64,000 bases of DNA from Spirochaetales bacterium (GCA_050178795.1 JBFXFT010000001.1:57513-121512), one strand, 5' to 3'. Shown: positions 6,768 through 61,576, counted from the first letter of the stretch. Translations and numbers: made by a program. Notes: generated by a model from the letters alone, not told the origin.

Positions 6768-7352
6768 TTAAAGCACTTCAACTATGCCTGAATCGCTAAA
6801 TTCAGCATATAAAATTATATTTTGTATAAGAATAAAAGTATACGTTGATGATGTACTTACAATAGAACCACTACTTCCACCAGAGTGCCAACCTACAAAA
6901 TGGTATCCTGAATTTGCGGTTGCTATAATAGTAACAGAGGAATCCTCGTCAAATGTGCCCGCACCAGTAACTACGCCGCCAACACTTCTATTTAATGTTA
7001 CCGTGTAAGTCAAAACAGTAGTTTGTGTAAATGTAGCAACATATTCTCCGCTTGCTTGTGCTACAAAACTATAGCTACTTTCTGTTGAAACAACAGTGCC
7101 ATTTAAAGACCAACTGGTAAAAAGATACCCACTCTCTGGGGTTGCAGTTAAAGCAACTGTTTCACCAACTTCATAGTCCCCCTCTCCAGTGACAGTACCA
7201 CTGCCAACTGTAGATAGTGTAATTGTTATAACGGTTGGGCTACCATCATTAAATACTGGTTTTGCAACAGTAATACAGCCAGTTAAAGAAGTGGCTGTAA
7301 TTAATATAAGTATTAAGGAAAATAATTTTTTTAAATGTTTTTTCATATTCAT
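6768..7352 (-). CDS. Lipoprotein with two InlB-B-repeat-like (bacterial Ig-like) domains
   Basis: Start is placed at MNMKKHLKKLFSLILILITATSLTG|C (lipobox), not the upstream track start at 7430. There are two copies of the pattern G.GTVTG.G.Y..G..V.L.A.P.SGY.F..W (GSGTVTGEGDYEVGETVALTATPESGYLFTSW and GGVVTGAGTFDEDSSVTIIATANSGYHFVGW). Confidence 0.65.
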   Translation of the reverse strand: MNMKKHLKKLFSLILILITATSLTGCITVAKPVFNDGSPTVITITLSTVGSGTVTGEGDYEVGETVALTATPESGYLFTSWSLNGTVVSTESSYSFVAQASGEYVATFTQTTVLTYTVTLNRSVGGVVTGAGTFDEDSSVTIIATANSGYHFVGWHSGGSSGSIVSTSSTYTFILIQNIILYAEFSDSGIVEVL

Positions 7353-7459
7353 ACTACCTATATGTTTTTTATACTCAAATATTGTAACATAGCGAAAACA
7401 AATATTCAATATTTTTTTAAAATAAATCAAAAATAACTATCTATTTTTCGTATACATAA

Positions 7460-9337: not shown

Positions 9338-9424
9338 TGGTACCGAAGGCCGGACTTGAACCGGCACGAGATTGCTCCCGAGGGATTTTAAGTCCCTTGT
9401 GTCTGCCTATTCCACCACTTCGGC
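9338..9424 (-). tRNA. tRNA-Leu (anticodon TAA), type II, CCA encoded
   Basis: GCCGAAGTGGTGGAATAGGCAGACACAAGGGACTTAAAATCCCTCGGGAGCAATCTCGTGCCGGTTCAAGTCCGGCCTTCGGTACCA. Folded by eye: anticodon loop CTTAAAA, long variable arm, T-loop GGTTCAAGTCC. Confidence 0.9.
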
Positions 9425-9438
9425 ATAATTAATGAGAT

Positions 9439-9512
9439 TGGAGGCACCACCCAGACTCGAACTGGGGATAAAGGCTTTGCAGGCCTCTGCCTTACCACTT
9501 GGCGATGGTGCC
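9439..9512 (-). tRNA. tRNA-Cys (anticodon GCA), CCA encoded
   Basis: GGCACCATCGCCAAGTGGTAAGGCAGAGGCCTGCAAAGCCTTTATCCCCAGTTCGAGTCTGGGTGGTGCCTCCA. Anticodon loop CTGCAAA, discriminator U. Confidence 0.9.
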
Positions 9513-9544
9513 AATTATTTAATTAACTCGCCATTATAAAAAAA

Positions 9545-9619
9545 TGGAGCGGAAGACGAGATTCGAACTCGCGACACCTGCCTTGGCAAGGCAGTGCTCT
9601 ACCACTGAGCCACTCCCGC
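9545..9619 (-). tRNA. tRNA-Gly (anticodon GCC), CCA encoded
   Basis: GCGGGAGTGGCTCAGTGGTAGAGCACTGCCTTGCCAAGGCAGGTGTCGCGAGTTCGAATCTCGTCTTCCGCTCCA. Anticodon loop TTGCCAA. Confidence 0.9.
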
Positions 9620-9636
9620 ATATTATGTATTTGTAT

Positions 9637-9713
9637 TGGTGGGAGCAACAGGACTCGAACCTGTGACCCTCTGCTTGTAAGGCAGATGCTCTAGCCAACT
9701 GAGCTATGCTCCC
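9637..9713 (-). tRNA. tRNA-Val (anticodon TAC), CCA encoded
   Basis: GGGAGCATAGCTCAGTTGGCTAGAGCATCTGCCTTACAAGCAGAGGGTCACAGGTTCGAGTCCTGTTGCTCCCACCA. Anticodon loop CTTACAA. Confidence 0.9.
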
Positions 9714-47531: not shown

Positions 47532-48485
47532 TTAAATTACAAACTTGGTATAGCGCATTTTGTCTTGCTCTTCAAGTTTCTTGGGACTCAAAATAGTCTC
47601 TGGGTCAACGTAGTACCTCATTCCCATACTACCATAATACATTACCATGCCAAAAATTGCAAGCAAAAATGTGCTAGATGGCAAAGTTATTATTAGACCA
47701 GCCCCTGCGGTGATGATAGTTACAAAGGCATTTACTATCAAAATAGTAAAAACTATTACTATGCTATTTGATAGTGTTTTAAAAAATCTTCTACTAACTG
47801 CCTTAAAGCCACGCCTATAGCCCTCAAAAACCCCACAATTATGAACTGTAATTGCTGGTATAACACCGCTAAACACTGTTATATTTAGTGCAATAAGCAC
47901 AGTGCTTAGAGTTATTACTATAAGTGGCGCTAAAAGTAACACAAAATAATCACTGCTATATAATAATGGCAATGTTAAGTATATTAAATAGGTAATAATT
48001 AAGTTAATTGGCAAATTGATTGCTAGTTTTGCTAGTTGAAGTTTTAACGACTTGCCAAAATTTTTTATGTAAGAGTTTAAAAATGAAAAATTAGCATTAC
48101 TTGACATATAGCCATTTAATGTATCTGTAACCGCTAGTTCACTAAGACCATTTAAAAAGCCGCCAAGTACTATTATTATTAAAAATACGCCTATTAGGCT
48201 ATATATTACTGCGCCCAAGTTTGCTGCTATTACGCTTACAAATAAATTTACTATACTACTAATAGATAGAAGTATTATGTTAAAGTCCAAATTTAGCATA
48301 AATGTACTTAGGGTATCTTTTAAATCTATAAAAAAGTTGTTTGCATTCAGCACATTAATTAAAGGTAGCGCTACGACTGTTGCAAGTGAAAAAACAATTA
48401 TGGTAACCACAATTTTGTACAAAAGAATTTTCCACGCCGTGTGGAAATTAGAAATTAACAATCGTAACGAATTTCTAAACATCAT
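47532..48485 (-). CDS. Polytopic membrane protein, unknown function (paralog of next gene)
   Basis: 317 aa with about 6-7 TM spans. C-terminal motif is MVMYYGSMGMRYY. Confidence 0.65.
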   Translation of the reverse strand: MMFRNSLRLLISNFHTAWKILLYKIVVTIIVFSLATVVALPLINVLNANNFFIDLKDTLSTFMLNLDFNIILLSISSIVNLFVSVIAANLGAVIYSLIGVFLIIIVLGGFLNGLSELAVTDTLNGYMSSNANFSFLNSYIKNFGKSLKLQLAKLAINLPINLIITYLIYLTLPLLYSSDYFVLLLAPLIVITLSTVLIALNITVFSGVIPAITVHNCGVFEGYRRGFKAVSRRFFKTLSNSIVIVFTILIVNAFVTIITAGAGLIITLPSSTFLLAIFGMVMYYGSMGMRYYVDPETILSPKKLEEQDKMRYTKFVI

Positions 48486-48499
48486 AACAGTTTTTGCTC

Positions 48500-49321
48500 C
48501 TATTTATAATAGTATTTTCTTTTGTTATCGTACCTGGTTGTTTGAGTTAAAGTATAATAAGCGGTCATACTTAGGCTTGAATAGTACATTATTAACAAGG
48601 CTACGCATATAACACTTATTAATGGCATAACTATGGTGCCTGAAAATAAAATTGCTATAAGACCAATTACTAAAGTTGGCACTAAAACCGCTACAAGTAT
48701 GCCTAAACTGTCTTTTTCTACAAGTTTAATGACGCTTGCTAGCGAGGTTTTAAACTGAGAACCGTTTACGATCATACTTGGAACATTTAAAAACATAACG
48801 CCAGCAATAAGTGCATAAATGGTAAGTATTGCAAGTACTATAACTGTGCTCAAAACTACATTAAAAGCGGTTGGAACATTGTTGATTCCAGATAAAATTA
48901 AATGTGTTAAAAATAATAGAGTGCTAGTTAAAAACATAATTACGAAGGCAATTAATAAAAATGCGAACATATTGGCAATTACCACCAAAATGTTGGAGTT
49001 TACATGCTCTTTTAGTGCTCTAAAATTTGTTTTGCCACTCCTCATGTGGTTTTCTATTTGACCGATGATTGCACTGACAAATATCGCAAGTAAAGACATA
49101 CCAAACACGGCAATTACAAAATTTAGAAAATTAATATTCAAAATGTAATTGAAAATTGTATCAAAACTAGCAATATTCATAGAGGCATAGTCTTTTATAA
49201 ATTCAAAAATTTTAAATGGGTTCAAAAGTAGCCCTAAAAATACAGCAGGAATGATTGCAAACAAAAACATATATAAAAAGTTTTTAAACATATAAGAAAG
49301 CCCTGCTCTAACAAATTTCAT
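48500..49321 (-). CDS. Polytopic membrane protein, unknown function (paralog of previous gene)
   Basis: 273 aa with about 6 TM spans. C-terminal motif is LIMYYSSLSMTAYY. It has its own promoter (TTGCTA, 17 nt, TATAAT) and SD GAGGGA. Confidence 0.65.
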   Translation of the reverse strand: MKFVRAGLSYMFKNFLYMFLFAIIPAVFLGLLLNPFKIFEFIKDYASMNIASFDTIFNYILNINFLNFVIAVFGMSLLAIFVSAIIGQIENHMRSGKTNFRALKEHVNSNILVVIANMFAFLLIAFVIMFLTSTLLFLTHLILSGINNVPTAFNVVLSTVIVLAILTIYALIAGVMFLNVPSMIVNGSQFKTSLASVIKLVEKDSLGILVAVLVPTLVIGLIAILFSGTIVMPLISVICVALLIMYYSSLSMTAYYTLTQTTRYDNKRKYYYK

Positions 49322-49402: not shown

Positions 49403-49434
49403 AAAAAAAAGGAAGGTCATTTTGCCTTCCTTTT
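49403..49434 (-). terminator. terminator closing the phage-derived operon
   Basis: Minus strand reads AAGGAAGG-CAAAATGA-CCTTCCTT followed by TTTTTTTTGC. Confidence 0.8.
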
Positions 49435-49437
49435 TTA

Positions 49438-49674
49438 TTAATCTTGACTTTTGTTGCCTTCATCGGTGTTGTCGCTATAGCCACTGCCACTAGTAGGGTC
49501 AGATATTATGCCAAGCACAACAAATACTCCGCAAACACTGGTTACAATTCCCATTATTAACTCGTTGTCAATTTTAAAGCCTAGCGCTTCGCCTATCGTT
49601 TGCAAAACAAGTATCAAAGCGGCGGCAAGACTTATCCAAAAGCCATAATTTTTAACTTTTTGTTTTAAATTCAT
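49438..49674 (-). CDS. Holin (phi-LC3-like family)
   Basis: 78 aa. MNLKQKVKNYGFWISLAAALILVLQTIGEALGF...GIVTSVCGVFVVLGIISDPTSGSGYSD matches the remembered family pattern K.R.KN..FW..L..A.LLL.Q...G......VF..L.ILGI..DPT..G..DS. It has two TM helices. Confidence 0.75.
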   Translation of the reverse strand: MNLKQKVKNYGFWISLAAALILVLQTIGEALGFKIDNELIMGIVTSVCGVFVVLGIISDPTSGSGYSDNTDEGNKSQD

Positions 49675-49689
49675 TTCATACTCCTAAAA

Positions 49690-49902
49690 TTAATATTTTT
49701 GCCTAAGTACTAAATGTTTAATTTGTTTAACATCTGTCTTAATGTCTTTTACTGTGCCTAAATGTTCGTTTAAGTCTTTTATTGTTTCTTGGTACTTTTT
49801 TTCTCTTTTATTGCTGTCCTTTAATTCAAATATTAAAAGCCCAACAAATAGCGCCGCCCATAAACCATTGCCTATTGCCAAATCAAAAATTTGTTCCCAC
49901 AT
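49690..49902 (-). CDS. BhlA/UviB-family holin-like peptide
   Basis: 70 aa. N-terminal TM (AIGNGLWAALFVGLLIFELKDSNKREKKYQ) followed by a charged helix, closely following the BhlA pattern (...GIFAALFVYLLFYVLKENSKRE.KYQ...). Confidence 0.7.
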   Translation of the reverse strand: MWEQIFDLAIGNGLWAALFVGLLIFELKDSNKREKKYQETIKDLNEHLGTVKDIKTDVKQIKHLVLRQKY

Positions 49903-50175
49903 TTATAGTTTAAACGCCTCGCTTAGGTTATGCACCATTTGCTCGCTTAAATTTGGGTGTGTTGCAATATAATTTACTACTTCTTCTTTACTTGAGTCCT
50001 TAAAGTATTCCTGTATAATGGAAAACTCTACTTTTTCTCTCGCTTGTTTTAAGGTTAAAGGTTCTGTTTTTTCGTCACCATTAAAAGTGACCTCAATTTT
50101 TTCTTGTTCTGTAACTTGACTATTATTTTCGTCAATTTCTTCATTTAATTTTTCATTAAAAAGGGTATCAAACAT
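49903..50175 (-). CDS. Phage hypothetical protein (acidic, 90 aa)
   Basis: Start is at ATG 50175, 7 nt after a perfect SD AAAGGAGGAA. An alternative upstream ATG at 50262 (119 aa, track ORF) lies 1 nt after the preceding stop. Its stop abuts the BhlA start (TAAATG). Confidence 0.55.
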   Translation of the reverse strand: MFDTLFNEKLNEEIDENNSQVTEQEKIEVTFNGDEKTEPLTLKQAREKVEFSIIQEYFKDSSKEEVVNYIATHPNLSEQMVHNLSEAFKL

Positions 50176-50263
50176 ATTTATTCCTCCTTTTTTTATGTAA
50201 TACTTTTGTCTAATTTTTGTAAACGCTTTTTGTAAAAATTTTTTGCTGTGTAAAACGTTCATA

Positions 50264-51769
50264 TTACACCAAATTTAACTTAATTTTGGCGTTAGATATA
50301 AACGCTTTATCTGTTAGGCTTTCTATTTTTATTCCTATCATTTCACCTTTCAAGTTCGGTCTTATTTTACTTGTGGTCGCCTTGCCTGAAATAGCAAAAG
50401 TTTTAGACGTACTTTCTGTAAAAACGGTCAAATTTATGTCGTAATAAGTAAGAAGGCTAATTTCCTTTACCACTTTTTCGGTTGCAGGGTAGCCTAAGTC
50501 ACTTATTGGAGAATACCAATGTTTTACTGTGTTATCTTCAAAAAATTTGCCATTATTCTCAAGTTGTCCTAAGTTTTGGCTGTACCCAGTATTAAAACAA
50601 AACACCATTTTGCTCATGCTTTCTACTTGAATAGAGGTCATACTAACGACGTCAATGCCCCTTATTATGTTGAATGTATTTGTTTTTACATCTAACTCAA
50701 TAAGTGTGTTATTGATGTGATCTGGGTCACTTTCTGAGCCTATTTCGTTACTATCTGGGTAGTTTAATTTACAAGAGACATAGTATTTACCTTCGTGGTA
50801 GTTTGCCACTGCCTGCTCGTTATAAATGCCGTCAAATAAAGAGTCTATTTTTAGATCTATTTTTGAGGTAGTTATGCCATCAAACTCGTAAATTCCGTCC
50901 TTTGTAAGCATTAAAATTTTGTCACCGCAAACACAAATTGTGTTTTTGTAAATTCTATTGCCAGATACAAATAGTTGACTAACATTTATTTCGTCGGAGC
51001 CATCATAAGTCTTTATTTTTGCTATTCCAAAGTCTCTAAACGCAAAAACATAACCCAAAAAACTTATTACCTTGTTTATTCCGCCACGCATATCGTTCAT
51101 TTCTATATATGGGTTGCTTGCATCTGTTAGGTCTGTTGTCCATGTTGTTGGGTCCAAATTTGAGGAGTACCTAATTAAATTGCGCTCGCCACCAATCGTT
51201 GCAAAAAGTTTGTCCTTATGCTCGCAAAGTGAACTTATTTTTGGAGCGGTTGAAACCACTTGTGGCACATCTTCTCCGTTCCAATATGCCATTCCGTCTG
51301 CTTCACTGGTCAAAATTATGGTGTCTTTACCATTTATTTTGTAGTTCATAGCAACAGGCCTTTCGGTAAATGTTATGCCACTAAGTAAAAAGAAAGTTGG
51401 AGTAATGCTAAAAAGCCTTGCGTAATAAATTAAATGGTCTTTTGTATATACCATTAGTTTATCTATTCTTTTGCCTTGAATTTCGCTATAGTGTTTAAAG
51501 TGCCAAATTGAGTCAATCTCTTTTCCGTCTGGTAGAGTTGGCAGATTTTCTATGTTTGGGTCATCTGCTGTTTCTGGTATTAACAGTTCTGCAAAACCAA
51601 GTCCCTCAACTAGAGCGCCATTTTCAAAATTATAGTTATAGGCATTTGTAGCGTATTTAAAGGGCATAATGTTCTCTGCAATCTCTGTATTTACACCATT
51701 TTTAAAGTCGCTTATATTTAAAGTTACTTCTTTTGGGGTTTGATATTTTAATGTCTTAGCATAAAACAT
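50264..51769 (-). CDS. Phage structural protein candidate (501 aa; possible tail/nozzle, beta-propeller-like)
   Basis: Start is at ATG 51769 behind SD TAGGAGGTGG, overlapping the upstream stop (TAATG). The sequence is beta-rich and repetitive (…DKLFATIGGERNLIRYS…, …DKILMLTKDGIYEFDG…). The role is inferred from position only. Confidence 0.45.
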   Translation of the reverse strand: MFYAKTLKYQTPKEVTLNISDFKNGVNTEIAENIMPFKYATNAYNYNFENGALVEGLGFAELLIPETADDPNIENLPTLPDGKEIDSIWHFKHYSEIQGKRIDKLMVYTKDHLIYYARLFSITPTFFLLSGITFTERPVAMNYKINGKDTIILTSEADGMAYWNGEDVPQVVSTAPKISSLCEHKDKLFATIGGERNLIRYSSNLDPTTWTTDLTDASNPYIEMNDMRGGINKVISFLGYVFAFRDFGIAKIKTYDGSDEINVSQLFVSGNRIYKNTICVCGDKILMLTKDGIYEFDGITTSKIDLKIDSLFDGIYNEQAVANYHEGKYYVSCKLNYPDSNEIGSESDPDHINNTLIELDVKTNTFNIIRGIDVVSMTSIQVESMSKMVFCFNTGYSQNLGQLENNGKFFEDNTVKHWYSPISDLGYPATEKVVKEISLLTYYDINLTVFTESTSKTFAISGKATTSKIRPNLKGEMIGIKIESLTDKAFISNAKIKLNLV

Positions 51770-52338
51770 TATAACCACCTCCTAACAGGCATTTTTATGT
51801 CGCTCTTTTTGCGACTTGCCACTAATAGTGCATCCTTAAAGCGTTGTTCCCAAGTTGTAGCTTCGTCAAATAGTCCACTTATTAATGAATATTCTGCTGT
51901 AACTCCATATGCCACAATTCTTTCTGTCAACTTGCCACCAAAAGTTTCAATATTGCCATCTAGAGTAGCGCTTTCTGGTGCGTAAGAATACTCTAAATTG
52001 TAAGTTCCGTTTTCTAAAACTATTGCGGTAGGAAACATTTTATATTTTACATTTACACCATTTTCGTCAGTAAGTTTAATTACATTTATTAAACGTTTTG
52101 CAAGGCTACTTAATGCTATTTCTTCGTCTAGCACTATAACCTCTTCTTCATAATTTAGGGGTATGTAGTCTGTTGCTATTTCGTCATAGACTAAATTTAA
52201 ACACCTAACTAATAACTCTAAATTTTTGGTGGTTAGTGCCGAAGGCTCTGTTACCTCCCCACCAAATGTTGTAAGTTCTAAAACGTCCTCCATTTGCAAA
52301 TATGTTGCAACAAGTTTTATTATTTCTGTAACACTCAT
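51769..52338 (-). CDS. Phage structural protein candidate (189 aa; possible head-tail adaptor)
   Basis: Intact ORF translationally coupled to the 501-aa gene. The size and position after the capsid gene resemble podovirus adaptor proteins. No motif recognised. Confidence 0.4.
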   Translation of the reverse strand: MSVTEIIKLVATYLQMEDVLELTTFGGEVTEPSALTTKNLELLVRCLNLVYDEIATDYIPLNYEEEVIVLDEEIALSSLAKRLINVIKLTDENGVNVKYKMFPTAIVLENGTYNLEYSYAPESATLDGNIETFGGKLTERIVAYGVTAEYSLISGLFDEATTWEQRFKDALLVASRKKSDIKMPVRRWL

Positions 52339-52350
52339 ACTCTTCCTCCT

Positions 52351-52740
52351 TTATACCCATTTTGTTTTGTAAGCGTCGTCAAAGTTAAGGTCAAAATTAT
52401 TACCTTTGCCCTCAATAAAATCAAGCATTTCTTTTAGTTTTATTTGTGCTTCGTCTAACGCTTTATTTTGTTCGGTAATCTCTAATTTTTTATTGTTTTT
52501 TTCTATTTCTGCGGTCAATTTTTCTAAATTTTCTCGCTTTGTTTTTAATAAATGTTCAATAGTTCTATAGTCAAGGTCTTTAAATGGCAAAACCAACTCT
52601 AAAACCTCTTTTTTAGGTGTGCTATAAAATATTTCATAGCGACTTTTAAAATAGTTCCATTTTATTATGTAATTTTTATCAATGTTTTTTATGCGTTTAC
52701 TTATGTTAAAAGTATCATCCATTATTTTTTTATATTTCAA
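52351..52740 (-). CDS. Phage hypothetical protein (129 aa, coiled-coil C-terminal half)
   Basis: TTG start 6 nt after AGAGG (alternative ATG at 52722). First gene after the capsid-gene terminator. Confidence 0.5.
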   Translation of the reverse strand: MKYKKIMDDTFNISKRIKNIDKNYIIKWNYFKSRYEIFYSTPKKEVLELVLPFKDLDYRTIEHLLKTKRENLEKLTAEIEKNNKKLEITEQNKALDEAQIKLKEMLDFIEGKGNNFDLNFDDAYKTKWV

Positions 52741-52770
52741 TTTTAACCTCTATACCACATAGTAAATTTT

Positions 52771-52804
52771 AAAAAAACAAGGGCAAGCAAGATTTGCTTA
52801 CCCT
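52771..52804 (-). terminator. strong terminator after the major capsid gene
   Basis: Minus strand reads AGGGTAAGCAA-ATC-TTGCTTGCCCT followed by TGTTTTTTT. Confidence 0.8.
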
Positions 52805-52845
52805 ATGTCTTTGTTATTGTTTATGAGTTTAACCTAATAAAAGAA

Positions 52846-54027
52846 TTAAGCTGCGCTTGCTGTACCGTCTAAGCCACTAATTTTTGCTTGACCAGATGGT
52901 TTATTACAAATAAGGTCAGCATATTTTACTAGCGTTGCTGTATAAGTTGCGTAACCTGGCATTTGTTTAATAATTCTGCCATCTTCACCTTCTAGCCATT
53001 TCCAGTCACATAGTTGATGTAAAGAAAATTCACTAGTATCAAGTAAATACATTGCGTCTTCTGCTACAAAGCGGTCTGCTATTACAGGAATTCCGTTGTA
53101 TGAAATTGCCTTAAAGCCACCAGCTAGTTCCATAACATCAATATTGCGTCTAAAAGTTGCTAAGTATTGTTGATATGCTCTTTTTACTTTTTGGCTAGTT
53201 GCAATAAAGTCAATGTCACTGCCAGAAACCTCTTCCAAATAGTCAATAGCGGTTTGAATTACAGTGTCGCCAATTCCACCTACGCTGCCTTGCATATATG
53301 GAGTCATCCAAGAGTGTTCGCTCCTATCTACGCCGTATAGACTGCCGTCTGAAGCAAATATTTTGCCTAGGCCTGTAAGTTCTAAGTCCTTAGAATTTTG
53401 AACTGTAAAGTAGTAACCTGCGGCAGTTGCAGCATCTGGGTCAACGCTCAATTTTATTTGTTTGTTTGCCCTATCAATATAGTTGATTCTGGCAGTTTTG
53501 CCTGTAACTTTTACATCTGCATCTGTGTAGGTATCTATTGTCATACCTTCCATTAAATTTCTTACAGAGTCTACTGTAATCAATTTTGTTTCTGTGCTAT
53601 ATGCGGTAACTGTTGCAATTACGCCAGAACCATCGCCGTATAGCATACGTCCAAAGTTAAAGGCACTTGCCCTAACTAGACCTTCCATTTCTGCGTTTAA
53701 TAGGTTTACAAAAGAGCCAGCATTATTGCTAGATGCCCTTATTGCTTTGTCGCTAAGTTCTATTGTTCCATATAAGTTTTTTAATTCGCTAACAAATTGA
53801 ACATAGTTGTTTGAAGCAGCAGAAGGAAGTGCGCCTTCCTCAGTACCTGCGCCAACACCACCGTTTAGTCCAAATGGTGCAAGTTTTCTAACTTCTTTGC
53901 CCCAAACGTCTGCTGTTGTTTGTTTAATTCTTGATAAAAGTGGGTTTGCCTCTGTGTTTAATTGGTTGCTAACTACTCCCAAATAAACGGTTTTTAGGGC
54001 ATTTTCTGCACTTGTTAAAGTAACCAT
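52846..54027 (-). CDS. Phage major capsid protein
   Basis: 393 aa with a very strong SD (TAGGAGGAA). It follows the scaffold gene and is followed by a strong terminator. There is no adjacent protease, so the system is scaffold-dependent. The fold is not verifiable here. Confidence 0.7.
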   Translation of the reverse strand: MVTLTSAENALKTVYLGVVSNQLNTEANPLLSRIKQTTADVWGKEVRKLAPFGLNGGVGAGTEEGALPSAASNNYVQFVSELKNLYGTIELSDKAIRASSNNAGSFVNLLNAEMEGLVRASAFNFGRMLYGDGSGVIATVTAYSTETKLITVDSVRNLMEGMTIDTYTDADVKVTGKTARINYIDRANKQIKLSVDPDAATAAGYYFTVQNSKDLELTGLGKIFASDGSLYGVDRSEHSWMTPYMQGSVGGIGDTVIQTAIDYLEEVSGSDIDFIATSQKVKRAYQQYLATFRRNIDVMELAGGFKAISYNGIPVIADRFVAEDAMYLLDTSEFSLHQLCDWKWLEGEDGRIIKQMPGYATYTATLVKYADLICNKPSGQAKISGLDGTASAA

Positions 54028-54043
54028 AAATTCCTCCTAATTT

Positions 54044-54736
54044 TTAAATTTTAAAGAAGGCCTTAGCAAGTTCCTTTGCCTCGTCTAGGTTCTTTGGCTT
54101 GTTTTTTGGCGCCAAACTAAAAGCCGAACCAGTGTGCGCCGTCATTACTGTAGCCCCTCTATTTTCTTTAAGTGATGTTAAATAATTTTGTATTATTTTT
54201 TCCTTCACTTTTTTGTTGTTTAATATATAGTTTTCAATAAAGTCTTCGTCTTCACTCAAAACTTCATTTGACCTATATTTGCCTGCTAAGATTTTTGAAT
54301 AAGCAAGTTCAAACGGTGTTTCAAGTTTACTTAAAACGTTGTCGTTTTTTACTAATTCAATTATTTCCGTGGCGTAGTTTTTTGCTTGTGGGGTGTTTTT
54401 AAAAAACTCGTCTAATTTTTGATTGTTGTTTCCAAATTCGGGTGCAACAGGTGTTACATTTTCCGTTTTTTCACTTAAATCTTTTAACACTTGACTTAAC
54501 TTTTGGCTCTTTCTAGTAAACTCCGACTGAAGATTATTATATGCCTCTAGTAAACTCTTGGTGTCCTTAAACTTGCCCACTGGCGAGCCCTCTAAAAACT
54601 CATCTGACACCTCTTCATCATTCAAATTTTCGGTACTAACCGCTTGTGTACTGTCAGTTTTTATTGGTTGTTCGCTATTATTTTGAGAGGAGTTTATTAA
54701 AAATTCTTCCTCTTTTTCTAATTTAATTTCTTCCAC
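54044..54736 (-). CDS. Phage scaffolding protein
   Basis: 230 aa (GTG start, SD AGGAG). Acidic and helical, located between portal and capsid. The segment ...GKFKDTKSLLEAYNNLQSEFTRKSQKL... resembles capsid-assembly scaffold proteins. Confidence 0.55.
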   Translation of the reverse strand: MEEIKLEKEEEFLINSSQNNSEQPIKTDSTQAVSTENLNDEEVSDEFLEGSPVGKFKDTKSLLEAYNNLQSEFTRKSQKLSQVLKDLSEKTENVTPVAPEFGNNNQKLDEFFKNTPQAKNYATEIIELVKNDNVLSKLETPFELAYSKILAGKYRSNEVLSEDEDFIENYILNNKKVKEKIIQNYLTSLKENRGATVMTAHTGSAFSLAPKNKPKNLDEAKELAKAFFKI

Positions 54737-54761
54737 TTTTTTCTCCTAAATGTTTTTTATT

Positions 54762-56678
54762 TTATTGTGTTTGTAAAAGTGCTTTGTGTTCGTTTATGTG
54801 TTCTAAAAGCATATCCTTTAATTTTGGTTTTTGAAGTACTGTCTTTTCATACTCTCCACCTAACATAAAGGCTATGTGCTCGTCTATGTGAAGTTTATGG
54901 TCGTCAATTTCTAGGACTTCTATTTTTTTAGTGCTATATGCAAAGTCTAAGTTTTCCCTTTTTGCCCTGTCTATTTGAAGTTCGTTAAGGTCACTTCTAT
55001 CTTCCCAAACTCCAAACCCCAACATTTCAAGGGTTTTAGAGCGTATGCGATTACTTAATTTTCCATTTTCATCCTGCAATAGACCAGCCTTTAAAAGTTC
55101 AAAAATCATATTTCGTTTTTGGGTTAGAGTTTCGCCTAGTTCTGTTTGCGTTTCAAAAATTATATCATCGCTATTGATGTTTGAAGACTCAAAGTAAAAC
55201 ATTTCTACCGAGCCATCTTTACCTATTATTTTTGCAAGCCTACTGCCAACAGTAAATTGTTTATACAGTCTTAAAATTTGAGCGGCTAGGTGCTTTGCGC
55301 AAAATTTTACTTGATCTGCAACGCTATTTAGCCTTGTATTGTCTTGTTCTAGTAAAATTTCTAGCGCGTTACCGCTTATGGTTGAAGTGTTAATTTTGGA
55401 GTTTAGCATAAGGTCGCTCACGCCACTTATTTGTATGAATTCATTAAGTAAGCGCTCTTCTTCGTCGCTAAAATCGCTTGGAATTTCGCCAGAGTCCATA
55501 ATTTTTGGTGCAGAACTGCCTTGCCTATAAATTAGTACTTTTCCTGGGCTTAGCCCTTCTTCTTCTAAGTTGTCTACGTCTACACTACCGTCCTCTACGG
55601 TTAGAATACCCATACTTATACGATTCAAAAACTCGTGTTTTCTGTTTTTTACTGCGTTGTACGCCCTTTGCACTGGAATTAGTCTTTCAATTATGCTGGT
55701 GCCCCAAAAACTGCCTGGTTGTTCTATTGAGTCTTGCTTAATAAAGGGGAAGCCGCGCTTGTCTTCTACCCTGTTTACATAAGGAAGTTCCCCTATGTAT
55801 AAAAGTTTGTCGCCTGCCACTATTATTACTCTTCCATTTGGATGGTCAACACTTGGCGACTCGTACTTTTCTATTACTATTGCGTGGTTACTTTTTACCT
55901 TGCTTATTACTTTTGGTACACTTGCCGTATAGCCAAGTCCACCAATGGTAGATATGTTGTCAAGCGAGAATACATCAATATTTTCACCCTTAACCTCGGC
56001 ACCCCAAATGCTTTTTATGTCGTCAATATGATAGGCTTTTGCGTGAATTATGCTCCTGCAATCGTCAATGCTTGTAGCGTTATTGCTCTCTGGAAAAATT
56101 TCATAAGGAGGGCAAACCGTCACATTTATGTCGCCCTCTTTAATTTTGTTTCCTTCCTCGTCAATTCCTACAATATTGCCTGCTTTTGAGTCCCAAGTAA
56201 CCTTGTAAAAACTTGTGCCACAAATTTCGCTCCATACAGTTGCGTCGCTAATTTTTTCGCTCAAACTTAGTTTATGGTAAGCCGAGTTTATTATGTTTTT
56301 ACTTACTTTTGCAGTGTTTATGTCTGCTTCACTTGTGCTTGCTGGCACAACAGACATTGTTGGCCTAACCTTACTAAGTTTACTTATTCGCACTTCTACA
56401 AGTGGCGCTATGTGGTTATAAATTTCGCGTTCTTGCCAAAAATATTGCTTTTCGTAGTCCTCAATATCGCCTGTTCCTGCAATGGTGCAATACTGATTTC
56501 CAAGTAAAAAGTTCATATTTAATTGCCACTGATTTTCGTAAGATTTGCGCTCTTGTTGCCTAACCTTAAAGTCGTCTCTTACTTCCTGTACTAAGTCTTC
56601 CAGATATTTGTCGCCATATATGTGGCTATAAATATGGTCGTTGTTAGTTGGTTTTTTGTTTTTTGTTTTACTAATCAT
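54762..56678 (-). CDS. Phage portal protein
   Basis: 638 aa. Position lies between the terminase and scaffold/capsid genes. N-terminal ...SYENQWQLNMNFLLGNQY... is portal-like. Confidence 0.7.
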   Translation of the reverse strand: MISKTKNKKPTNNDHIYSHIYGDKYLEDLVQEVRDDFKVRQQERKSYENQWQLNMNFLLGNQYCTIAGTGDIEDYEKQYFWQEREIYNHIAPLVEVRISKLSKVRPTMSVVPASTSEADINTAKVSKNIINSAYHKLSLSEKISDATVWSEICGTSFYKVTWDSKAGNIVGIDEEGNKIKEGDINVTVCPPYEIFPESNNATSIDDCRSIIHAKAYHIDDIKSIWGAEVKGENIDVFSLDNISTIGGLGYTASVPKVISKVKSNHAIVIEKYESPSVDHPNGRVIIVAGDKLLYIGELPYVNRVEDKRGFPFIKQDSIEQPGSFWGTSIIERLIPVQRAYNAVKNRKHEFLNRISMGILTVEDGSVDVDNLEEEGLSPGKVLIYRQGSSAPKIMDSGEIPSDFSDEEERLLNEFIQISGVSDLMLNSKINTSTISGNALEILLEQDNTRLNSVADQVKFCAKHLAAQILRLYKQFTVGSRLAKIIGKDGSVEMFYFESSNINSDDIIFETQTELGETLTQKRNMIFELLKAGLLQDENGKLSNRIRSKTLEMLGFGVWEDRSDLNELQIDRAKRENLDFAYSTKKIEVLEIDDHKLHIDEHIAFMLGGEYEKTVLQKPKLKDMLLEHINEHKALLQTQ

Positions 56679-56680
56679 AA

Positions 56681-56902
56681 CTAATCTTCCTTTTTAAATT
56701 TTTTAGGTTCTTTTAATATATTTTTAGGGCTTAACGGCACTAACTCGCGAGAAATAGTTTCGTGTAAGTCGTTTAAACAGTTCTTGCAGAGTTTTGTGTT
56801 TCCAATGTTCCAAAAACGCCTAAATTTTAAAATGTATGTTGCATCATTTTTGCAATTTGGAGTGTCGCACTTACTCTTCTCCTTCACTCTCTCCAGTTCC
56901 AT
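56681..56902 (-). CDS. Phage small zinc-ribbon protein
   Basis: 73 aa from ATG 56902 (SD GGAG; the track ORF extends to 56926). Contains C..C (CDTPNC) ... C..C (CKNC). Overlaps the 3' end of the TerS-like gene in another frame. Confidence 0.5.
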   Translation of the reverse strand: MELERVKEKSKCDTPNCKNDATYILKFRRFWNIGNTKLCKNCLNDLHETISRELVPLSPKNILKEPKKFKKED

Positions 56903-57245
56903 CTGTTTCTCCTTTTTGTAAATCATTTAATAAGTTTAATAACTTTATTTTTTCCTCCTCCAACTCCTCATCACTCATATCTCTAAACGAACTCGCACCA
57001 TTTTTGAAGTCAAGTTCTAAAAGTGCCTTAACAGCCGATATGTCTGGCGGAATGTTTTTATAACTTACTTTGCGCTTGGTTAAAATTAACTCTCCGTCGT
57101 CTTTATCTTTACTATATTCTTCTATAACTTCTTCAAGTTTGTAGCCAAGAGCCTTTTTATATAAAACATCTGTAAGTTTGTCCTTTTTAGCATTTGAAGG
57201 TTGTCGTTGGTCTTCTAATTTTGCATTTTTTACTCTTTTAGCCAT
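56871..57245 (-). CDS. Terminase small-subunit-like protein lacking an N-terminal HTH domain
   Basis: 124 aa from ATG 57245 (SD GAGGAA). The segment LTDVLYKKALGYKLEEVIEEY...GELILTKRKVSYKNIPPDISAVKALLELDFKNG parallels the oligomerisation core of SPP1/SF6 G1P (LEHLTRIALGQEKEQV...THVEVSAKDRIKALELLGKAH). The C-terminal tail is acidic. It lies downstream of TerL. Confidence 0.5.
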   Translation of the reverse strand: MAKRVKNAKLEDQRQPSNAKKDKLTDVLYKKALGYKLEEVIEEYSKDKDDGELILTKRKVSYKNIPPDISAVKALLELDFKNGASSFRDMSDEELEEEKIKLLNLLNDLQKGETDGTGESEGEE

Positions 57246-57253
57246 AAAATTCC

Positions 57254-58690
57254 TCAATATCTATTAGTTCTTTTTAGTCGTTTATAGAGGCGCTCTTTAT
57301 CCTTTTGAATTATGCTCTTTTGCACTAAGTGTTTTGGCACTTCTGGTCTACTCATTATGTAATATCTCAGTTCGTCAAGTGCATGGTCGTTTTGTTTTTT
57401 GGGTCTGTCATTGTCGCTCCACCAGTAACTTTTAATTTCTCTTATTAAGTTGACGCAGTTTTTAAATATGTATAGTTTTACTTCGCCGTCAGCGTTTTTT
57501 AGGTAACTTTTTACCCTTTGAATACCGCTAAAAAGGTCTTTATTTACGTTTGAATTTACTTGAATTCCATACTCGTAAAAAAGTTCAACCACGCTCTTTG
57601 TTCCACTTAACGTTCTTTGGTTTGCAGCGGAATCAATTAGCGAATTAATCATACCGTTACTGTTCCTGTGCCAACCTAAATTATCACTTATTTCGTGTAT
57701 TCTTTTTGAGTGATAACTTATGTCTCTATCTGCCTCATAGTGTTCTGCAATTACATAAACTGTTCCATCATAGTCAACCGCATACCAGTGCGCAGAGAGT
57801 GGATTTTTTAAACCAGGGTCTATGCTTATGTTATCGTACCAGTCCTTTGGCACTTCAAATGGGTCTATGACATGCACGCTCTCTTCAAAAGCGCTATATA
57901 CCATACCCCCTGTGCCCACAAACTTGCCATAACAGCGACTGTCTAACTCTTCTTCACTTAGACTACTCGTTATTAAATTTACCTCTTCTTCTTTTAAAAA
58001 AGGGTTGTCCTCCCAAGACATATTTATGTGCCAAACTTCTCTATCGTTATTTTTGTTTAAGTAAATTTCTTCATACACCCAAGTTAAGCCTTTTAGTGGC
58101 GTCATTGTGCCAAATATTTCCCCGCTTTTATCTAGTACGCGCATTTTGCACTCTAAATAAATATCGTAGGGCGGTTCTTCGTCAAACCACACATAGTCTA
58201 AACTTGTGCCTTGAAATTTTTCGCGCCCTTGGTCGCAACTTTTAAAGCCAATTTTGCTTATTCCACCAAATATGTTCTTTATTAAAATATGGTCTATTAC
58301 TCCGCTTTCTGGGCTGTCTTTCCTGCCTGATAGCATAACTATGTTTACAATCCAGTCTGGGTTAAGATAGTACAAAATTTTTTGCTGAGCTACGTCCCTT
58401 TGCACCTGAGTAGATAGTGAAACCACCCAACCTGATGTGTCTTTTTTGTTTGTTTTGTAGGGGTGTATGCCACGAGCGAGATATATTGTTTCAACCGCGC
58501 CACATTCCGTCTTTCCTGTTCTATTTCCTCCAAAAACCCACCTGTTTCGTTTAGTATTTTTGTGAAACTCTAACTGTTTAGCGTGAACTTTTTGTCCCTT
58601 ATTGTATTTTAAAACCCTGTTTTTTACTGACCTTACATTTTGCTCTTTTTCAATTTCTTTTAGTTTTTCAATTATGTCTTTTTCTTCCAA
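57254..58690 (-). CDS. Phage terminase large subunit
   Basis: 478 aa (TTG start, SD AGAGGTG). Walker A WVFGGNRTGKTECG, Walker B LDYVWFDEEP, and a C-terminal nuclease-type region ...IDSAAN...HALDELRYY.... Confidence 0.88.
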   Translation of the reverse strand: MEEKDIIEKLKEIEKEQNVRSVKNRVLKYNKGQKVHAKQLEFHKNTKRNRWVFGGNRTGKTECGAVETIYLARGIHPYKTNKKDTSGWVVSLSTQVQRDVAQQKILYYLNPDWIVNIVMLSGRKDSPESGVIDHILIKNIFGGISKIGFKSCDQGREKFQGTSLDYVWFDEEPPYDIYLECKMRVLDKSGEIFGTMTPLKGLTWVYEEIYLNKNNDREVWHINMSWEDNPFLKEEEVNLITSSLSEEELDSRCYGKFVGTGGMVYSAFEESVHVIDPFEVPKDWYDNISIDPGLKNPLSAHWYAVDYDGTVYVIAEHYEADRDISYHSKRIHEISDNLGWHRNSNGMINSLIDSAANQRTLSGTKSVVELFYEYGIQVNSNVNKDLFSGIQRVKSYLKNADGEVKLYIFKNCVNLIREIKSYWWSDNDRPKKQNDHALDELRYYIMSRPEVPKHLVQKSIIQKDKERLYKRLKRTNRY

Positions 58691-58795
58691 GTAGCACCTC
58701 TTTTTAGGGGCATCAGTTTAAATTTAAAAAAATAGAACGCATACACATACATTCTATTTTCATTTTTTATTATTTTAAAGTTTTACTGCCAAAAA

Positions 58796-59374
58796 TTAAT
58801 AATACAGCGCTGGCTCTAACTTTTTGTAGGAGTTATAAGCGAGGTTTAAAAGTTTATTTTCGTCAAATTCTTTCTCTGCTTTTAGTGCATTATTTTTTTG
58901 CTTTGATGCTTTATTTCTTTCACTTAAAATTTCATCTTTATATAGTTTATTGTATAAATCCATTATCCAAATCTCTTTAGACAACATAGTTTTTAACTCT
59001 TTGTGGCTATAGTTTTTGCCCTTTAAGGCAAGTTCAAAACTCTTAATTGAACTATTGCTTCTTCTAAAAAATGTACGCGTACTTATGTCTAAAACTTTTG
59101 CAATATCTTCACTTTTTACCCTGTCTACATACTTCAACATAAGTAATTTTGCGTCGTCACAATTAAGACTTGCCAAGCAGTCTTCTATTAGAAGTTTTAA
59201 GTTGATTAGTGTAATTTTTCTGTCCGTAAGTTCTATAATTTTACTAGCCGAATAGTAAACGTCCATATTAGAATTTAAGCCCGATGTCAACACAATTTTA
59301 TCTATTGCGCTTACAATTTTTTCAAGCGACCTATACGCATTTAAAAAAGTTTTAGACCAAATTTTTAATTCCAT
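58796..59374 (-). CDS. Phage late-gene transcriptional regulator (sigma-70 region-4-like HTH; ArpU/RinA-type position)
   Basis: 192 aa from ATG 59374 (SD GGAGGAA). The HTH-like segment is AKLLMLKYVDRVKSEDIAKVLDISTRTFFRRSNSSIKSF. It sits immediately upstream of the terminase gene. Confidence 0.55.
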   Translation of the reverse strand: MELKIWSKTFLNAYRSLEKIVSAIDKIVLTSGLNSNMDVYYSASKIIELTDRKITLINLKLLIEDCLASLNCDDAKLLMLKYVDRVKSEDIAKVLDISTRTFFRRSNSSIKSFELALKGKNYSHKELKTMLSKEIWIMDLYNKLYKDEILSERNKASKQKNNALKAEKEFDENKLLNLAYNSYKKLEPALYY

Positions 59375-59482
59375 TACAATTCCTCCAAGTGCCATAGTAA
59401 AATTATGCAAACATTAAGCATTAATGGCTCACTGAGGCTATTATAGATTATGAGTTTTTTGATTGTCAAAGGTTTATGCCAT

Positions 59483-59546
59483 ATTTTTGTAAAATATTAT
59501 TATTTTTTGTATTTTTTTACAAAAATGTTTTTTATTGTATTTTTTT
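59483..59546. promoter_or_regulatory. Inverted and direct repeats in the island's upstream control region (candidate operators)
   Basis: Perfect 12-bp inverted repeat ATTTTTGTAAAA (59483..59494) / TTTTACAAAAAT (59515..59526). Also a 12-bp direct repeat TTGTATTTTTTT at 59507..59518 and 59535..59546. Confidence 0.35.
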
Positions 59547-59704: not shown

Positions 59705-61576
59705 ATGAAGAAACATTCGTTTATACGTACAAAATTGTTATATATCTTAATAGCCCTATTTGTAATGTTTGTTTTGGGTTTTTCTTCCAGTATTGCAACT
59801 GCATACGCAGAGGACGTAATAATAGGCGCTTTGGAGGACTACTCCACTACCCTAACTAACGATACCACAAATTTAACCAAATTTGTCATTAAAAACAACG
59901 ACCAATTTTATTTTACAGATACCACAAACAGTAAAGTGATAGTATGGAACAATGGCACCTTGGAGGAATTTGGAAGTTTTGGCGCAGGCAACGGTAGTTT
60001 TGTCAATCCGAGTTTAATAGCCACCCTACCAAATAATAAAATTTATGTATACGACAACTTAAAAAGATTACAAGAGTTTGACTCTAGTTACACATTTTTA
60101 AATAGTTATAACATTGTTAGAACCTCCACCACTTACATAGCAATGGGCTCAATCTCATCTATTAGCAATGACCTATCAAACAATTTATATATGATAGATT
60201 ATGATAACGATATAATAATTAAAAAATCGTCAACAACTAGCGAACTTACCGAATATTTAAACGGCACTAGCCTTGGACTAAACTTTGGTGCAAACTCACA
60301 AATTGCGGTTTCGCCAAATGGTGCAACTATCTTCGTTACAAACATTAATGGCGCAAGCAACATCTATTCAATTAACAACTTACTTTCAATAAATCAAATA
60401 GATATCGCCTCTTATCCTATTACTAACGTAAGCCAAATTGCAATAGATTGTGCCAATAATTTATTTGTACTAGACAAAAATGCAATCAGTTCTAAATTAT
60501 TTAAACTTTCAAGAAATACCTACGCTTATGAAAGTTACTTATATGTAGTAGGCAATGCTTTAAACAATTTAACGAGCCTTAACATAAACATTGAAAGCGG
60601 ACAAGTAATGGCAATAAATACCTCTACCAATACGCTTCAAAATGTAAATGTAACCGATTATGAAAGCAATTTTACAGAAAATATTACAAGTTTTGTAGAC
60701 CCAATAGATTACACTTTAGCAACTGCTTTAAGTAGTTATGCAAGGCTTGCAAGCGTAAGCGTTGAGGGCTGTCCCCTACTACAAACGCCTTACAATATAA
60801 CGCCGATTATTGAACTAAGCGAAGGTCAAAAACTAATAATTTTAAGCCAAACGGTAGACAATAACCCAGATTACTATTATGTGTTATATGTCAACGCAGG
60901 TGACGACTACAACATTGACGGCTATGTCTTAAAAAACAATATAACAACCTTGACAAATACAGATTTAGGTTTAAGTTTTGACGATGTTAGAATATTAAAC
61001 AATGCGACAAACATCTATAAATACCCTACCTCATTAAATAGCAACCTTGATACACCAGTAGTTGTAACTACCATAGACAAAAACGAAGAACTTGAAGTAC
61101 TAGGGACAGCCTATGACATAATTGATGGCAACGGACAAAGTTTTTATGAGGTTAAAATAACTACCAACACAATAGGCTATATAAGAGCGATTGATGCTGT
61201 TAGAGTCACCGTTACAACAATAGTGCCAACCATATCTACAAATGCAGAAATAGTAATTCCAGACAATAGCTCTTATGTAAATGTATATTCTAGCGAGGGC
61301 AACTTAAACACTTTGCTTCCACAAATACTGCTTAGCGGTCAACGCATATATATTAGCGTGTACAATAAAGACGCACTTTGGACGCAAGTTACCTTTGTTG
61401 ATCCATTAAATAGGCAAGTTACTGGCTACATTGAAACAAAATATATTGAAGTTTATGACGACTACAATAACTTATTGCAAGCGTTTTTACTTACAGTTAT
61501 AAGTTTTGTGTTAATAGTAATTGTAATAATTGTTAAAACAAGAAAAAAACCTATTGATGACGATATAATAGAATAA
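59705..61576 (+). CDS. Membrane-anchored surface protein: NHL-repeat beta-propeller plus three SH3b-like domains
   Basis: 623 aa. Signal peptide (…SSSIATAYA|ED). NHL-like blades (FGSFGAGNGSFVNPSLIATLPNNKIYVYDNLKRLQEFD; LYMIDYDNDIIIK; IFVTNINGASNIYSI; LFVLDKNAISSKLFKL). Three SH3b-like units in the C-terminal half. C-terminal TM (LLQAFLLTVISFVLIVIVIIV) followed by KTRKK. Confidence 0.7.
   Translation: MKKHSFIRTKLLYILIALFVMFVLGFSSSIATAYAEDVIIGALEDYSTTLTNDTTNLTKFVIKNNDQFYFTDTTNSKVIVWNNGTLEEFGSFGAGNGSFVNPSLIATLPNNKIYVYDNLKRLQEFDSSYTFLNSYNIVRTSTTYIAMGSISSISNDLSNNLYMIDYDNDIIIKKSSTTSELTEYLNGTSLGLNFGANSQIAVSPNGATIFVTNINGASNIYSINNLLSINQIDIASYPITNVSQIAIDCANNLFVLDKNAISSKLFKLSRNTYAYESYLYVVGNALNNLTSLNINIESGQVMAINTSTNTLQNVNVTDYESNFTENITSFVDPIDYTLATALSSYARLASVSVEGCPLLQTPYNITPIIELSEGQKLIILSQTVDNNPDYYYVLYVNAGDDYNIDGYVLKNNITTLTNTDLGLSFDDVRILNNATNIYKYPTSLNSNLDTPVVVTTIDKNEELEVLGTAYDIIDGNGQSFYEVKITTNTIGYIRAIDAVRVTVTTIVPTISTNAEIVIPDNSSYVNVYSSEGNLNTLLPQILLSGQRIYISVYNKDALWTQVTFVDPLNRQVTGYIETKYIEVYDDYNNLLQAFLLTVISFVLIVIVIIVKTRKKPIDDDIIE

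Follow-up and report, generated by a model that had tools for sequence, protein, structure and literature searches.

A podovirus-derived gene cluster beside rnj

We examined a 64,000-nucleotide stretch of a bacterial assembly deposited as 'Spirochaetales bacterium' (GCA_050178795.1, JBFXFT010000001.1:57513-121512; this whole stretch is 'the window', with positions counted from its first letter), which contains a compact cluster of phage-derived genes. The cluster is a minus-strand run of 13 intact open reading frames (ORFs) extending over ~10 kb (49,438–59,410), with short or overlapping junctions and a GC content equal to that of the surrounding window. The original prediction, made by a model from the sequence alone, had described 13 tightly packed ORFs bounded by a control region and a strong terminator, with another terminator behind the capsid gene; the same 13 genes were called independently on a public contig of identical sequence, and the promoter, the closing hairpin and the internal terminator were all located. 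We consider the cluster to be most probably an element of the gene transfer agent (GTA) type that derives from a podovirus, is fixed in the chromosome and is inherited vertically. Its features, in the direction of transcription, are as follows (aa, amino acids).

59483..59526, no strand: palindromic operator-like element TTTTGTAAAA...TTTTACAAAA (inverted repeat I15), directly 5' of the regulator promoter's −35 box
59440..59469, minus (59,469 to 59,440): sigma-70 promoter of the regulator gene, TTGACA-18-TATAAT, 12/12 consensus
58796..59395, minus: late-gene activator, 199 aa, sigma-70 region-4 / RinA / DUF1492-like (profile matches)
57254..58690, minus: large terminase TerL, ATPase and nuclease domains (Terminase_6N 7.8e-13; phrog_2 7.6e-34)
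56871..57245, minus: small-terminase (TerS) core protein, 124 aa, no recognisable N-terminal DNA-binding domain (PHROG family matches)
56681..56902, minus: conserved zinc-ribbon protein, 73 aa, Cx4C...CxxC
54762..56678, minus: portal, 638 aa, P22/SU10 type (P22_portal 2.5e-20; SU10_portal 8.4e-9; phrog_156 2.9e-38)
54044..54736, minus: putative scaffold, 230 aa, acidic (by position only)
52846..54027, minus: major capsid protein, 393 aa, podovirus HK97-fold family (profile matches)
52780..52804, minus (52,804 to 52,780): intrinsic terminator between capsid and tail genes, 11-bp stem with 5 GC pairs and a T-run
52351..52722, minus: coiled-coil protein, 123 aa, between the capsid and adaptor genes (conserved; 54/80 loci)
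51769..52338, minus: head-to-tail adaptor, 189 aa, SU10 / T7 gp11 type (Pfam match of a homologue; AlphaFold2 model and Foldseek)
50264..51769, minus: tail nozzle, 501 aa, beta-propeller, T7 gp12 / P22 gp10 type (AlphaFold2 model and Foldseek)
49903..50262, minus: variable acidic protein, 119 aa, tail-distal slot (gene call)
49690..49902, minus: BhlA-family holin, 70 aa (Pfam Holin_BhlA 3.6e-15)
49438..49674, minus: Phage_holin_1-family holin, 78 aa (Pfam PF04531 4.1e-10)
49405..49436, no strand: bidirectional terminator hairpin closing the cluster, 13-bp stem between an A-run and a T-run

The regulator, terminase, portal and capsid assignments of the original prediction agree with the results of profile searches. 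The 199-aa product of the first gene, which had been read as a sigma-70 region-4-like regulator, matches Pfam Sigma70_r4_2 (1.2e-5) and DUF1492 (4.6e-4), phrog_36 (1e-8) and the NCBIfam RinA model (8.9e-4), all with scores below the curated cut-offs. The Walker A and Walker B motifs that had been quoted for TerL are real, and together with the TMTP motif and the nuclease aspartates they are invariant among 123 distinct homologues. The portal was recovered by the P22_portal, SU10_portal and phrog_156 profiles, and the capsid protein by NCBIfam NF033394 (capsid_maj_Podo; 259.5 bits against a cut-off of 80) and phrog_14242 (4.5e-59).

The 124-aa protein, earlier described as TerS-core-like, belongs to a family of 85–128-aa proteins, 33 of 39 of which match the TerS family phrog_309 (best 1.4e-8) and 14 of which match a second TerS family, phrog_23444. 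The window copy by itself aligns to phrog_309 with a value of 0.017, over profile positions 197–244 of 319; since the match is limited to this central segment, the protein appears to be a TerS core that lacks the usual N-terminal DNA-binding domain. A search of the PDB with the family profile returned no significant match, and the TerS call is made on the PHROG family-level evidence only. The gene that follows does encode a small zinc-ribbon protein, as had been proposed; its four cysteines, invariant in 31 homologues, are spaced Cx4C...CxxC rather than CxxC..CxxC, and it matches no family in Pfam or PHROG. The putative scaffold gene occupies the interval between portal and capsid in 77 of 80 loci and its product has no family match in Pfam, PHROG or NCBIfam. 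For the 123-aa coiled-coil protein, a PHROG scan gave only phrog_17018 (unknown function) and a profile search of the PDB gave nothing.

The 189- and 501-aa ORFs had been left unassigned, with a tailless particle among the options considered; that view does not hold, as both encode components of a podovirus tail. A homologue of the shorter protein (66% identical) passed the Pfam SU10_adaptor threshold (31.7 bits versus 27), and the AlphaFold2 model of the window copy (pLDDT 89) is matched by Foldseek to the adaptors of Pa223, SU10, KHP30, N4 and T7. The model of the longer protein (pLDDT 87, pTM 0.86) corresponds to tail nozzles, with matches to the Pa223 tail (9nwi_Y, 5e-23, TM 0.75), VP1, GP4, SU10, P22 gp10 and T7 gp12. 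With these two proteins identified as adaptor and nozzle and the 124-aa protein as a TerS core, the cluster is therefore predicted to encode a capsid, a packaging motor, the minimal core of a short podovirus tail and two holins. The holins had been anticipated as a BhlA/UviB-type peptide and a phi-LC3-type protein, in accord with their Holin_BhlA and Phage_holin_1 matches.

Between the nozzle and holin genes lies an ORF that was first taken to encode a 90-aa acidic protein and is called as 119 aa. It is only 31–44% identical in the closest relatives and has the highest ratio of nonsynonymous to synonymous substitution rates (dN/dS) in the cluster (0.22–0.42). Elsewhere this tail-distal slot is filled by a DUF7934 protein (303–372 aa), with or without a 522-aa coiled-coil protein (L014, 13720–14631; L012, 13704–16305, the nozzle-BhlA interval). 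These slot proteins are candidates for a receptor-binding or fibre module.

Control signals of the cluster

The −35 and −10 boxes of the regulator promoter are kept in relatives, and the palindrome and its adjacent block are kept in the closely related loci L084 and L086 despite saturation of synonymous sites between these genomes. The palindrome, abutting a sigma-70 promoter, resembles an operator that a dimeric regulator of the host might bind. The terminator located behind the capsid gene would probably act to attenuate transcription.

A hexamer, TTTGTC, is found within 60 nt of TerL starts in 25 of 114 loci, versus 1 of 114 in a control region further upstream; it often lies directly 5' of the Shine-Dalgarno sequence and is not evident in the window's own copy (58691–58795). 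It may form part of an activator-dependent late promoter. Another hexamer, TTGGCA, recurs 5' of TerS in loci that lack TerL (described below) and is present at background level 5' of TerL (11/115). Because the TerL-less loci are phylogenetically clustered, we draw no conclusion from it regarding a shared late-promoter motif.

Chromosomal setting and functions sought in the window

The flanks of the cluster, which the original prediction had described as core chromosomal genes, consist of rnj with genes for two membrane proteins at one end, and genes for a surface protein and a topoisomerase IV or gyrase A-type enzyme at the other. Elsewhere the window encodes housekeeping functions (O-methyltransferase, U32 peptidase, thrS, gatCAB, priA, def, fmt, dnaJ, ligA, pcrA and others). 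In keeping with the earlier reading, no integrase, repressor, replication gene, protease, endolysin or fibre/tailspike gene was found among the ORFs of the cluster or the other window ORFs examined, and profile searches of the island proteins gave no sheath, tube, tape-measure or baseplate family. Flanking direct repeats, previously looked for by eye, were also absent from a repeat scan around the island, and scans for an adjacent tRNA and for Rfam elements were likewise negative.

The cluster is conserved in order and position across species

In a scan of one genome per species, the capsid protein was found at 61–71% identity in at least 568 species-representative genomes, and the protein database holds more than 6,300 relatives. 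The titles kept for the capsid-match records point to Christensenellales-type Clostridia metagenome-assembled genomes (MAGs), including Christensenella spp., Candidatus Borkfalkia and 'Clostridia bacterium'. A listing of members of the protein family contained no name indicative of a cultured carrier.

Proteins identical to those of the window carry the NCBI label 'Spirochaetales bacterium' (MGD9901015.1, locus tags AB7S44_005xx). The closest relatives carry the labels 'Clostridia bacterium' and 'Tenericutes bacterium HGW-Tenericutes-4', and the family at large belongs to Christensenellales. The Spirochaetales label of the source MAG is probably wrong.

A comparison of the interval between rnj and parC across related genomes had been proposed as a check, and both the gene order and the chromosomal site proved to be conserved across species. 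In the 80 loci compared, the regulator comes first, followed by TerL, the TerS core and the zinc ribbon; next are portal, scaffold and capsid, then the 123-aa protein, adaptor and nozzle, and finally the variable slot, BhlA and holin. Where sufficient downstream sequence was available (50 loci), the cluster is followed in 17 by the same membrane-protein pair and rnj, and many of these 17 loci also contain the O-methyltransferase and U32 peptidase genes. Both flanks are common to the window and its closest relatives. At greater divergence, an IMG/VR contig (L111) whose capsid and rnj products are 47% and 48% identical to those of the window still has rnj downstream of the cluster.

The divergence of the island follows that of the neighbouring host gene. 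Pairwise divergence of rnj correlates with that of the capsid (Mantel r = 0.84) and the portal (r = 0.86; p = 2e-4), and 90% of genome pairs show stronger conservation of the capsid than of rnj. In comparisons with the nearest relatives, dN/dS was 0.06–0.12 for the capsid, 0.08–0.10 for the portal and 0.06 for the nozzle, as compared to 0.15–0.19 for rnj; dS exceeds 1.2 even versus the closest relative, in which the capsid is 91% identical. Core ORFs were full length in 97–100% of cases (TerL 123/125, portal 139/144, capsid 138/140, nozzle 93/96, adaptor 116/116). The claim that the island shows no decay and is actively maintained, for which dN/dS had been suggested as a check, is thus supported by intact core ORFs, by purifying selection and by a capsid that is more conserved than rnj. 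Taken together, the comparisons point to an element at a fixed locus that is inherited vertically with the host genome and is under purifying selection.

It had also been suggested that near-identical modules within complete prophages would count against a maintained element. Searches of 50,697 phage records, in which the best capsid matches were actinophages at no more than 28% identity, and of IMG/VR yielded no complete phage related to the island. The 31 IMG/VR matches were mostly short contigs, and those of sufficient length represent the same chromosomal island, either beside rnj (L111) or interrupted behind the capsid gene by restriction/helicase-type genes.

Two of these contigs (L117, 5986–12763; L095, 8658–15290) contain DNA methyltransferase and helicase-type ORFs, resembling restriction or defence genes, behind the capsid gene, and in both the adaptor and nozzle genes are not at their expected place. 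The island may act as an insertion hotspot.

Clusters interrupted by host genes

In 21 of 57 informative loci there is no TerL gene within 6–10 kb upstream of the structural genes. Such loci group into clades by capsid phylogeny, none of them lies beside rnj, and the structural genes remain intact in lineages in which the cluster is interrupted. In one such lineage (L014) aspS and a methyltransferase gene take up the upstream position (4068–5816). Related lineages that do possess TerL contain 2.6–4.7-kb insertions of surface-protein-like genes between TerL and TerS; in L008 (4015–6426) and L068 (2432–6927) that interval holds ORFs of 803 to 1115 aa which are surface-protein-like and match M26_N or InlB repeats.

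A metagenome scan with TerL identified nine loci with an intact TerL and no portal or capsid within ~10 kb downstream, five of them with the regulator. Dispersal of the cluster to two separate loci was considered as an explanation and was weakened by one of these (L121), where the sequence behind TerL lines up collinearly with what precedes the structural genes in a locus lacking TerL (L040), indicating instead an insertion of at least 10 kb. Because of this collinearity, at least part of the separation of TerL from the structural genes appears to reflect a growing insertion of host genes rather than relocation. A packaged phage genome could not tolerate internal insertions of host genes of the kind seen in these interrupted clusters, whereas a gene set regulated by the host could.

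Relationship to known GTAs, phages and satellites

The closest described counterpart is FpGTA of Faecalibacterium prausnitzii (PMC12946183, Nat Commun 2026), in which a 10.5-kb operon (operon I) carries genes for TerS (lacking a DNA-binding domain) and TerL, for the portal and a protein at the scaffold position, and for the capsid, adaptor and nozzle. FpGTA forms ~40-nm particles that contain 8.4–8.9 kb of host DNA and was termed the first podovirus-like GTA by its authors (PMC12946183). The statement in the original prediction that no minimal podovirus-like GTA had been described in Clostridia is therefore out of date, as FpGTA has the same architecture (PMC12946183). Both elements are ~10-kb operons of Gram-positive anaerobes of the Clostridia with a TerS lacking its DNA-binding domain, TerL, portal, scaffold-position protein, capsid, a small protein of unknown function, adaptor and nozzle (compared against the published annotation, RCH50844-RCH50852), and both are podovirus-derived, without replication or integration genes, and apparently near-ubiquitous in their host clade.

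The two also differ in several respects. The capsid of FpGTA is annotated as N4-gp56 family (RCH50849.1), whereas the window capsid and 10 distant relatives match only NF033394 capsid_maj_Podo, with no match to TIGR04387; an hhalign comparison of the capsid family profile with N4 gp56, used as a stand-in for the FpGTA capsid, gave a probability of 0.05%. In the cluster described here TerS follows TerL, the holins are part of the same operon, a RinA/sigma-like activator is attached and the host belongs to another order. The second operon of FpGTA (baseplate, fibre, receptor-binding protein, holin and endolysin) has no counterpart that we could see in the 64-kb window. Finally, FpGTA is backed by electron microscopy, proteomics and its 8.4–8.9 kb of packaged DNA, whereas the window element is known from its genes alone.

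With the RcGTA-type agents of Alphaproteobacteria the cluster shares vertical inheritance, purifying selection, a fixed locus, a TerS without a DNA-binding domain and the lack of replication and integration genes, and in both cases lysis or attachment genes may lie elsewhere (PMC12946183, PMC9662315). RcGTA-type agents differ in being siphovirus-like, with a long non-contractile tail, a ~15-kb head-tail cluster, control by CtrA and quorum sensing, and structural proteins unrelated in sequence; the element described here has only a short-tail adaptor and nozzle. PBSX of Bacillus, which packages 13 kb of host DNA, resembles it as a chromosomally fixed, phage-like element of a Gram-positive host with a sigma-like late activator (Xpf in PBSX) and with holin-based lysis, which is predicted for the cluster here. 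PBSX differs in its size (~28 kb), its contractile myovirus tail and its role as mainly a killing particle, while no sheath, tube or tape-measure gene was found here.

Podoviruses of the SU10/P22/T7/Pa223 type correspond to the cluster in their portal (P22/SU10 Pfam families), capsid (capsid_maj_Podo, and SU10_MCP in relatives), adaptor (SU10_adaptor) and nozzle fold, but are complete, replicating phages of 38–77 kb with fibres or tailspikes, ejection proteins and endolysins. Capsid-forming phage-inducible chromosomal islands (cf-PICIs) and similar satellites are likewise small, with their own capsid, portal and small terminase and a RinA-type regulatory link; they differ in having an integrase, att sites and a replication module and in using the TerL and tail of a helper, none of which applies here.

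A probable GTA-type element and its alternatives

We favour a GTA-like element over a satellite or a decaying prophage because of its conserved site, its co-divergence with the host, its intact genes and the absence of a parent phage from the collections searched. Of the proposal that the island is a domesticated, particle-producing module, the part describing it as non-autonomous, undecayed and maintained passed the comparative tests; the satellite and tailless options that accompanied it were discarded.

If the GTA-type reading is correct, a host signal acting through the conserved promoter and palindromic operator would lead to expression of the RinA/sigma-like activator, which would then switch on a single late operon comprising TerL, TerS core, portal, scaffold and capsid. 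Read-through of the terminator behind the capsid gene would supply the adaptor, nozzle and variable distal protein in smaller amounts than the head proteins. TerL and a TerS core without a DNA-binding domain would fill small capsids by a headful, sequence-nonspecific mechanism, mostly with host chromosome, and the adaptor and nozzle would close the portal. The two holins, encoded last, together with a hydrolase from elsewhere would release the particles by lysis of a subpopulation; the endolysin, and probably also a receptor-binding protein, would be encoded elsewhere or supplied by the host. The comparison establishes what the genes are and how they are conserved and inherited; that particles form, package DNA non-specifically, hold less than the 10-kb length of the cluster, are released by lysis and transfer DNA is inferred. 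For the packaging of host DNA the indications are indirect, namely the missing DNA-binding domain of the TerS core and the published virome data on Christensenellaceae described below.

Several points weigh against this interpretation. The window encodes no endolysin and no clear receptor-binding protein, and that the cluster is too long to package itself is an assumption. Because rnj and the island adjoin, the co-divergence test is not fully independent of co-transfer; because synonymous sites are saturated, the dN/dS values are rough and indicative only; and the figure of at least 568 species is a count of carriers, not a share of the clade. Split core ORFs do occur, namely the portal of L082 (3293–5194), TerL of L086 (5438–6867) and the portal of L012. 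A locus with the same capsid protein as L082 (L083) has an intact portal, and the split ORFs represent either rare decay or errors in low-coverage MAGs. The connection of the cluster to packaging events reported for Christensenellaceae, discussed below, is circumstantial.

Among other explanations, it is unlikely that the cluster specifies a domesticated particle with a different purpose, either a killer or bacteriocin-like particle (as PBSX is thought to be) or programmed lysis that releases DNA or public goods, with packaging incidental to it. Such a role would suit the presence of two holins from families tied elsewhere to bacteriocin or toxin release (BhlA/UviB-type) and the lack of an identified receptor-binding protein or fibre in the window copy, and a PBSX-like role is left open by the authors of the FpGTA study as well (PMC12946183). 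However, conservation as strict as that of the capsid extends to the TerS core, the portal and the ATPase and nuclease residues of TerL, which argues that DNA packaging itself is under selection, and the short podovirus tail lacks a contractile killing device. A capsid-forming, cf-PICI-like satellite or other helper-dependent mobile element that borrows tail or lysis parts, one of the options originally put forward, is very improbable. The size of the island (~10 kb), its capsid and packaging genes with a RinA-like regulator (a family known from Staphylococcus aureus pathogenicity islands and their helper systems) and the missing fibre and endolysin would all fit such an element, but we reject it because the island carries its own TerL, with invariant catalytic residues, has no integrase, att repeats, replication/primase module or excision genes that could be found, and co-diverges with its host. 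It also encodes its own adaptor and nozzle, occupies the same site in 17 of 50 informative loci down to an rnj identity of 46%, and in some lineages has host genes inserted within it.

An incomplete gene set for an autonomous phage, and the occasional split ORFs in relatives (the L082 portal and L086 TerL), would be expected of a defective prophage remnant that has been kept by chance or inactivated very recently and has no current function. We regard this as extremely improbable, given the occurrence of the cluster in at least 568 species, core ORFs that are 97–100% intact, a capsid more conserved than rnj in 90% of pairs, dN/dS values of 0.06–0.12, invariant catalytic residues, and a promoter and operator kept despite saturated synonymous sites; the pattern of divergence argues against conservation through the recent horizontal spread of one element. 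Least probable of all is a still-autonomous, minimal temperate podovirus. The small ORFs that lack an assignment (zinc ribbon, 123-aa and 119-aa proteins) or enzymes of the host could in principle provide its replication and integration, but no polymerase, terminal protein, integrase, repressor or boundary repeats were found, inheritance appears to be vertical at one locus, cultured-phage records contain no such phage, and some lineages have housekeeping genes lying within the cluster.

Significance of a probable GTA-type element in Christensenellales

For Christensenellaceae, host fragments of 6.3 kb (QANA01) and 4.1 kb (HGM11616) have been reported to be packaged in a GTA-like manner, with no locus identified (PMC12946183). 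Apart from that study, we found no paper in the literature searched that ties GTAs to the Christensenellales clade. The cluster is a concrete candidate locus for this packaging.

In its broadest form, which we put forward tentatively as a possibility somewhat short of a probable one, the proposal is that the cluster represents an ancient and independent podovirus-type GTA, inherited vertically across an order-level clade of Clostridia (Christensenellales and relatives, at least 568 species) from an ancestor that preceded the divergence of rnj to ~46%, and that it is the basis of the 4–6 kb Christensenellaceae packaging in human gut viromes. If true, this would place the family among the most widespread and oldest of GTAs outside Alphaproteobacteria, and would constitute a second, convergent origin of the FpGTA-type architecture. 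The cluster is best described as a podovirus-type GTA-like element that possibly arose by an independent domestication, and if its capsid lineage truly differs from that of FpGTA, the same minimal architecture has been domesticated more than once.

Few GTAs have been tied to genes outside Alphaproteobacteria, and a podovirus-type GTA was first described in 2024–2026, in Faecalibacterium. The order-wide, syntenic and strongly constrained distribution of the cluster suggests that a major group of anaerobes from the gut and the environment, with members linked to host health, has long maintained capsid-mediated mobilisation of host DNA under selection. In practical terms, the combination of a capsid_maj_Podo capsid, an SU10-type adaptor, a nozzle and a TerS core provides a marker set by which such elements can be told from 'defective prophages' in MAG annotation and virome analysis.

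Neighbouring genes

The two multi-pass membrane proteins on the rnj side (317 and 273 aa; window 47532–49321) follow the holin in many species, and weak matches to the pair are present in Borkfalkia-like loci in which rnj was not seen (L055, L146, L170, L186 and L197). The pair may be functionally tied to the element (in lysis, immunity or uptake, for example) rather than being mere neighbours.

On the other side, a 623-aa surface protein (window 59705–61576, plus strand) is encoded divergently from the activator; it begins with a signal-like segment, ends in an anchor and weakly matches SH3_3. A protein in the same position is ~52% identical in the closest relatives (L084 and L086) and 22–30% identical in L065, L078, L060, L076, L048, L045, L028 and L004. 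Three loci contain an additional gene of ~240 aa on the opposite strand between the activator and TerL (L084, 4493–5227; L086, 4652–5371; L012, 4624–5373), with an SH3_3 domain in L012 and L086, whose product could bind the cell wall or assist in lysis; in the window, where activator and TerL are only 105 bp apart, the gene is absent.

Farther away, a tRNA cluster (Leu-TAA, Cys, Gly and Val; window 9338–9713, minus strand) is unrelated to the island. The region at 3978–7430 (minus strand) encodes a 913-aa protein without a Pfam match, followed by a 220-aa surface protein with InlB-B-repeat and PKD domains; repeat domains of a similar kind are also found in ORFs that interrupt the cluster in other lineages.

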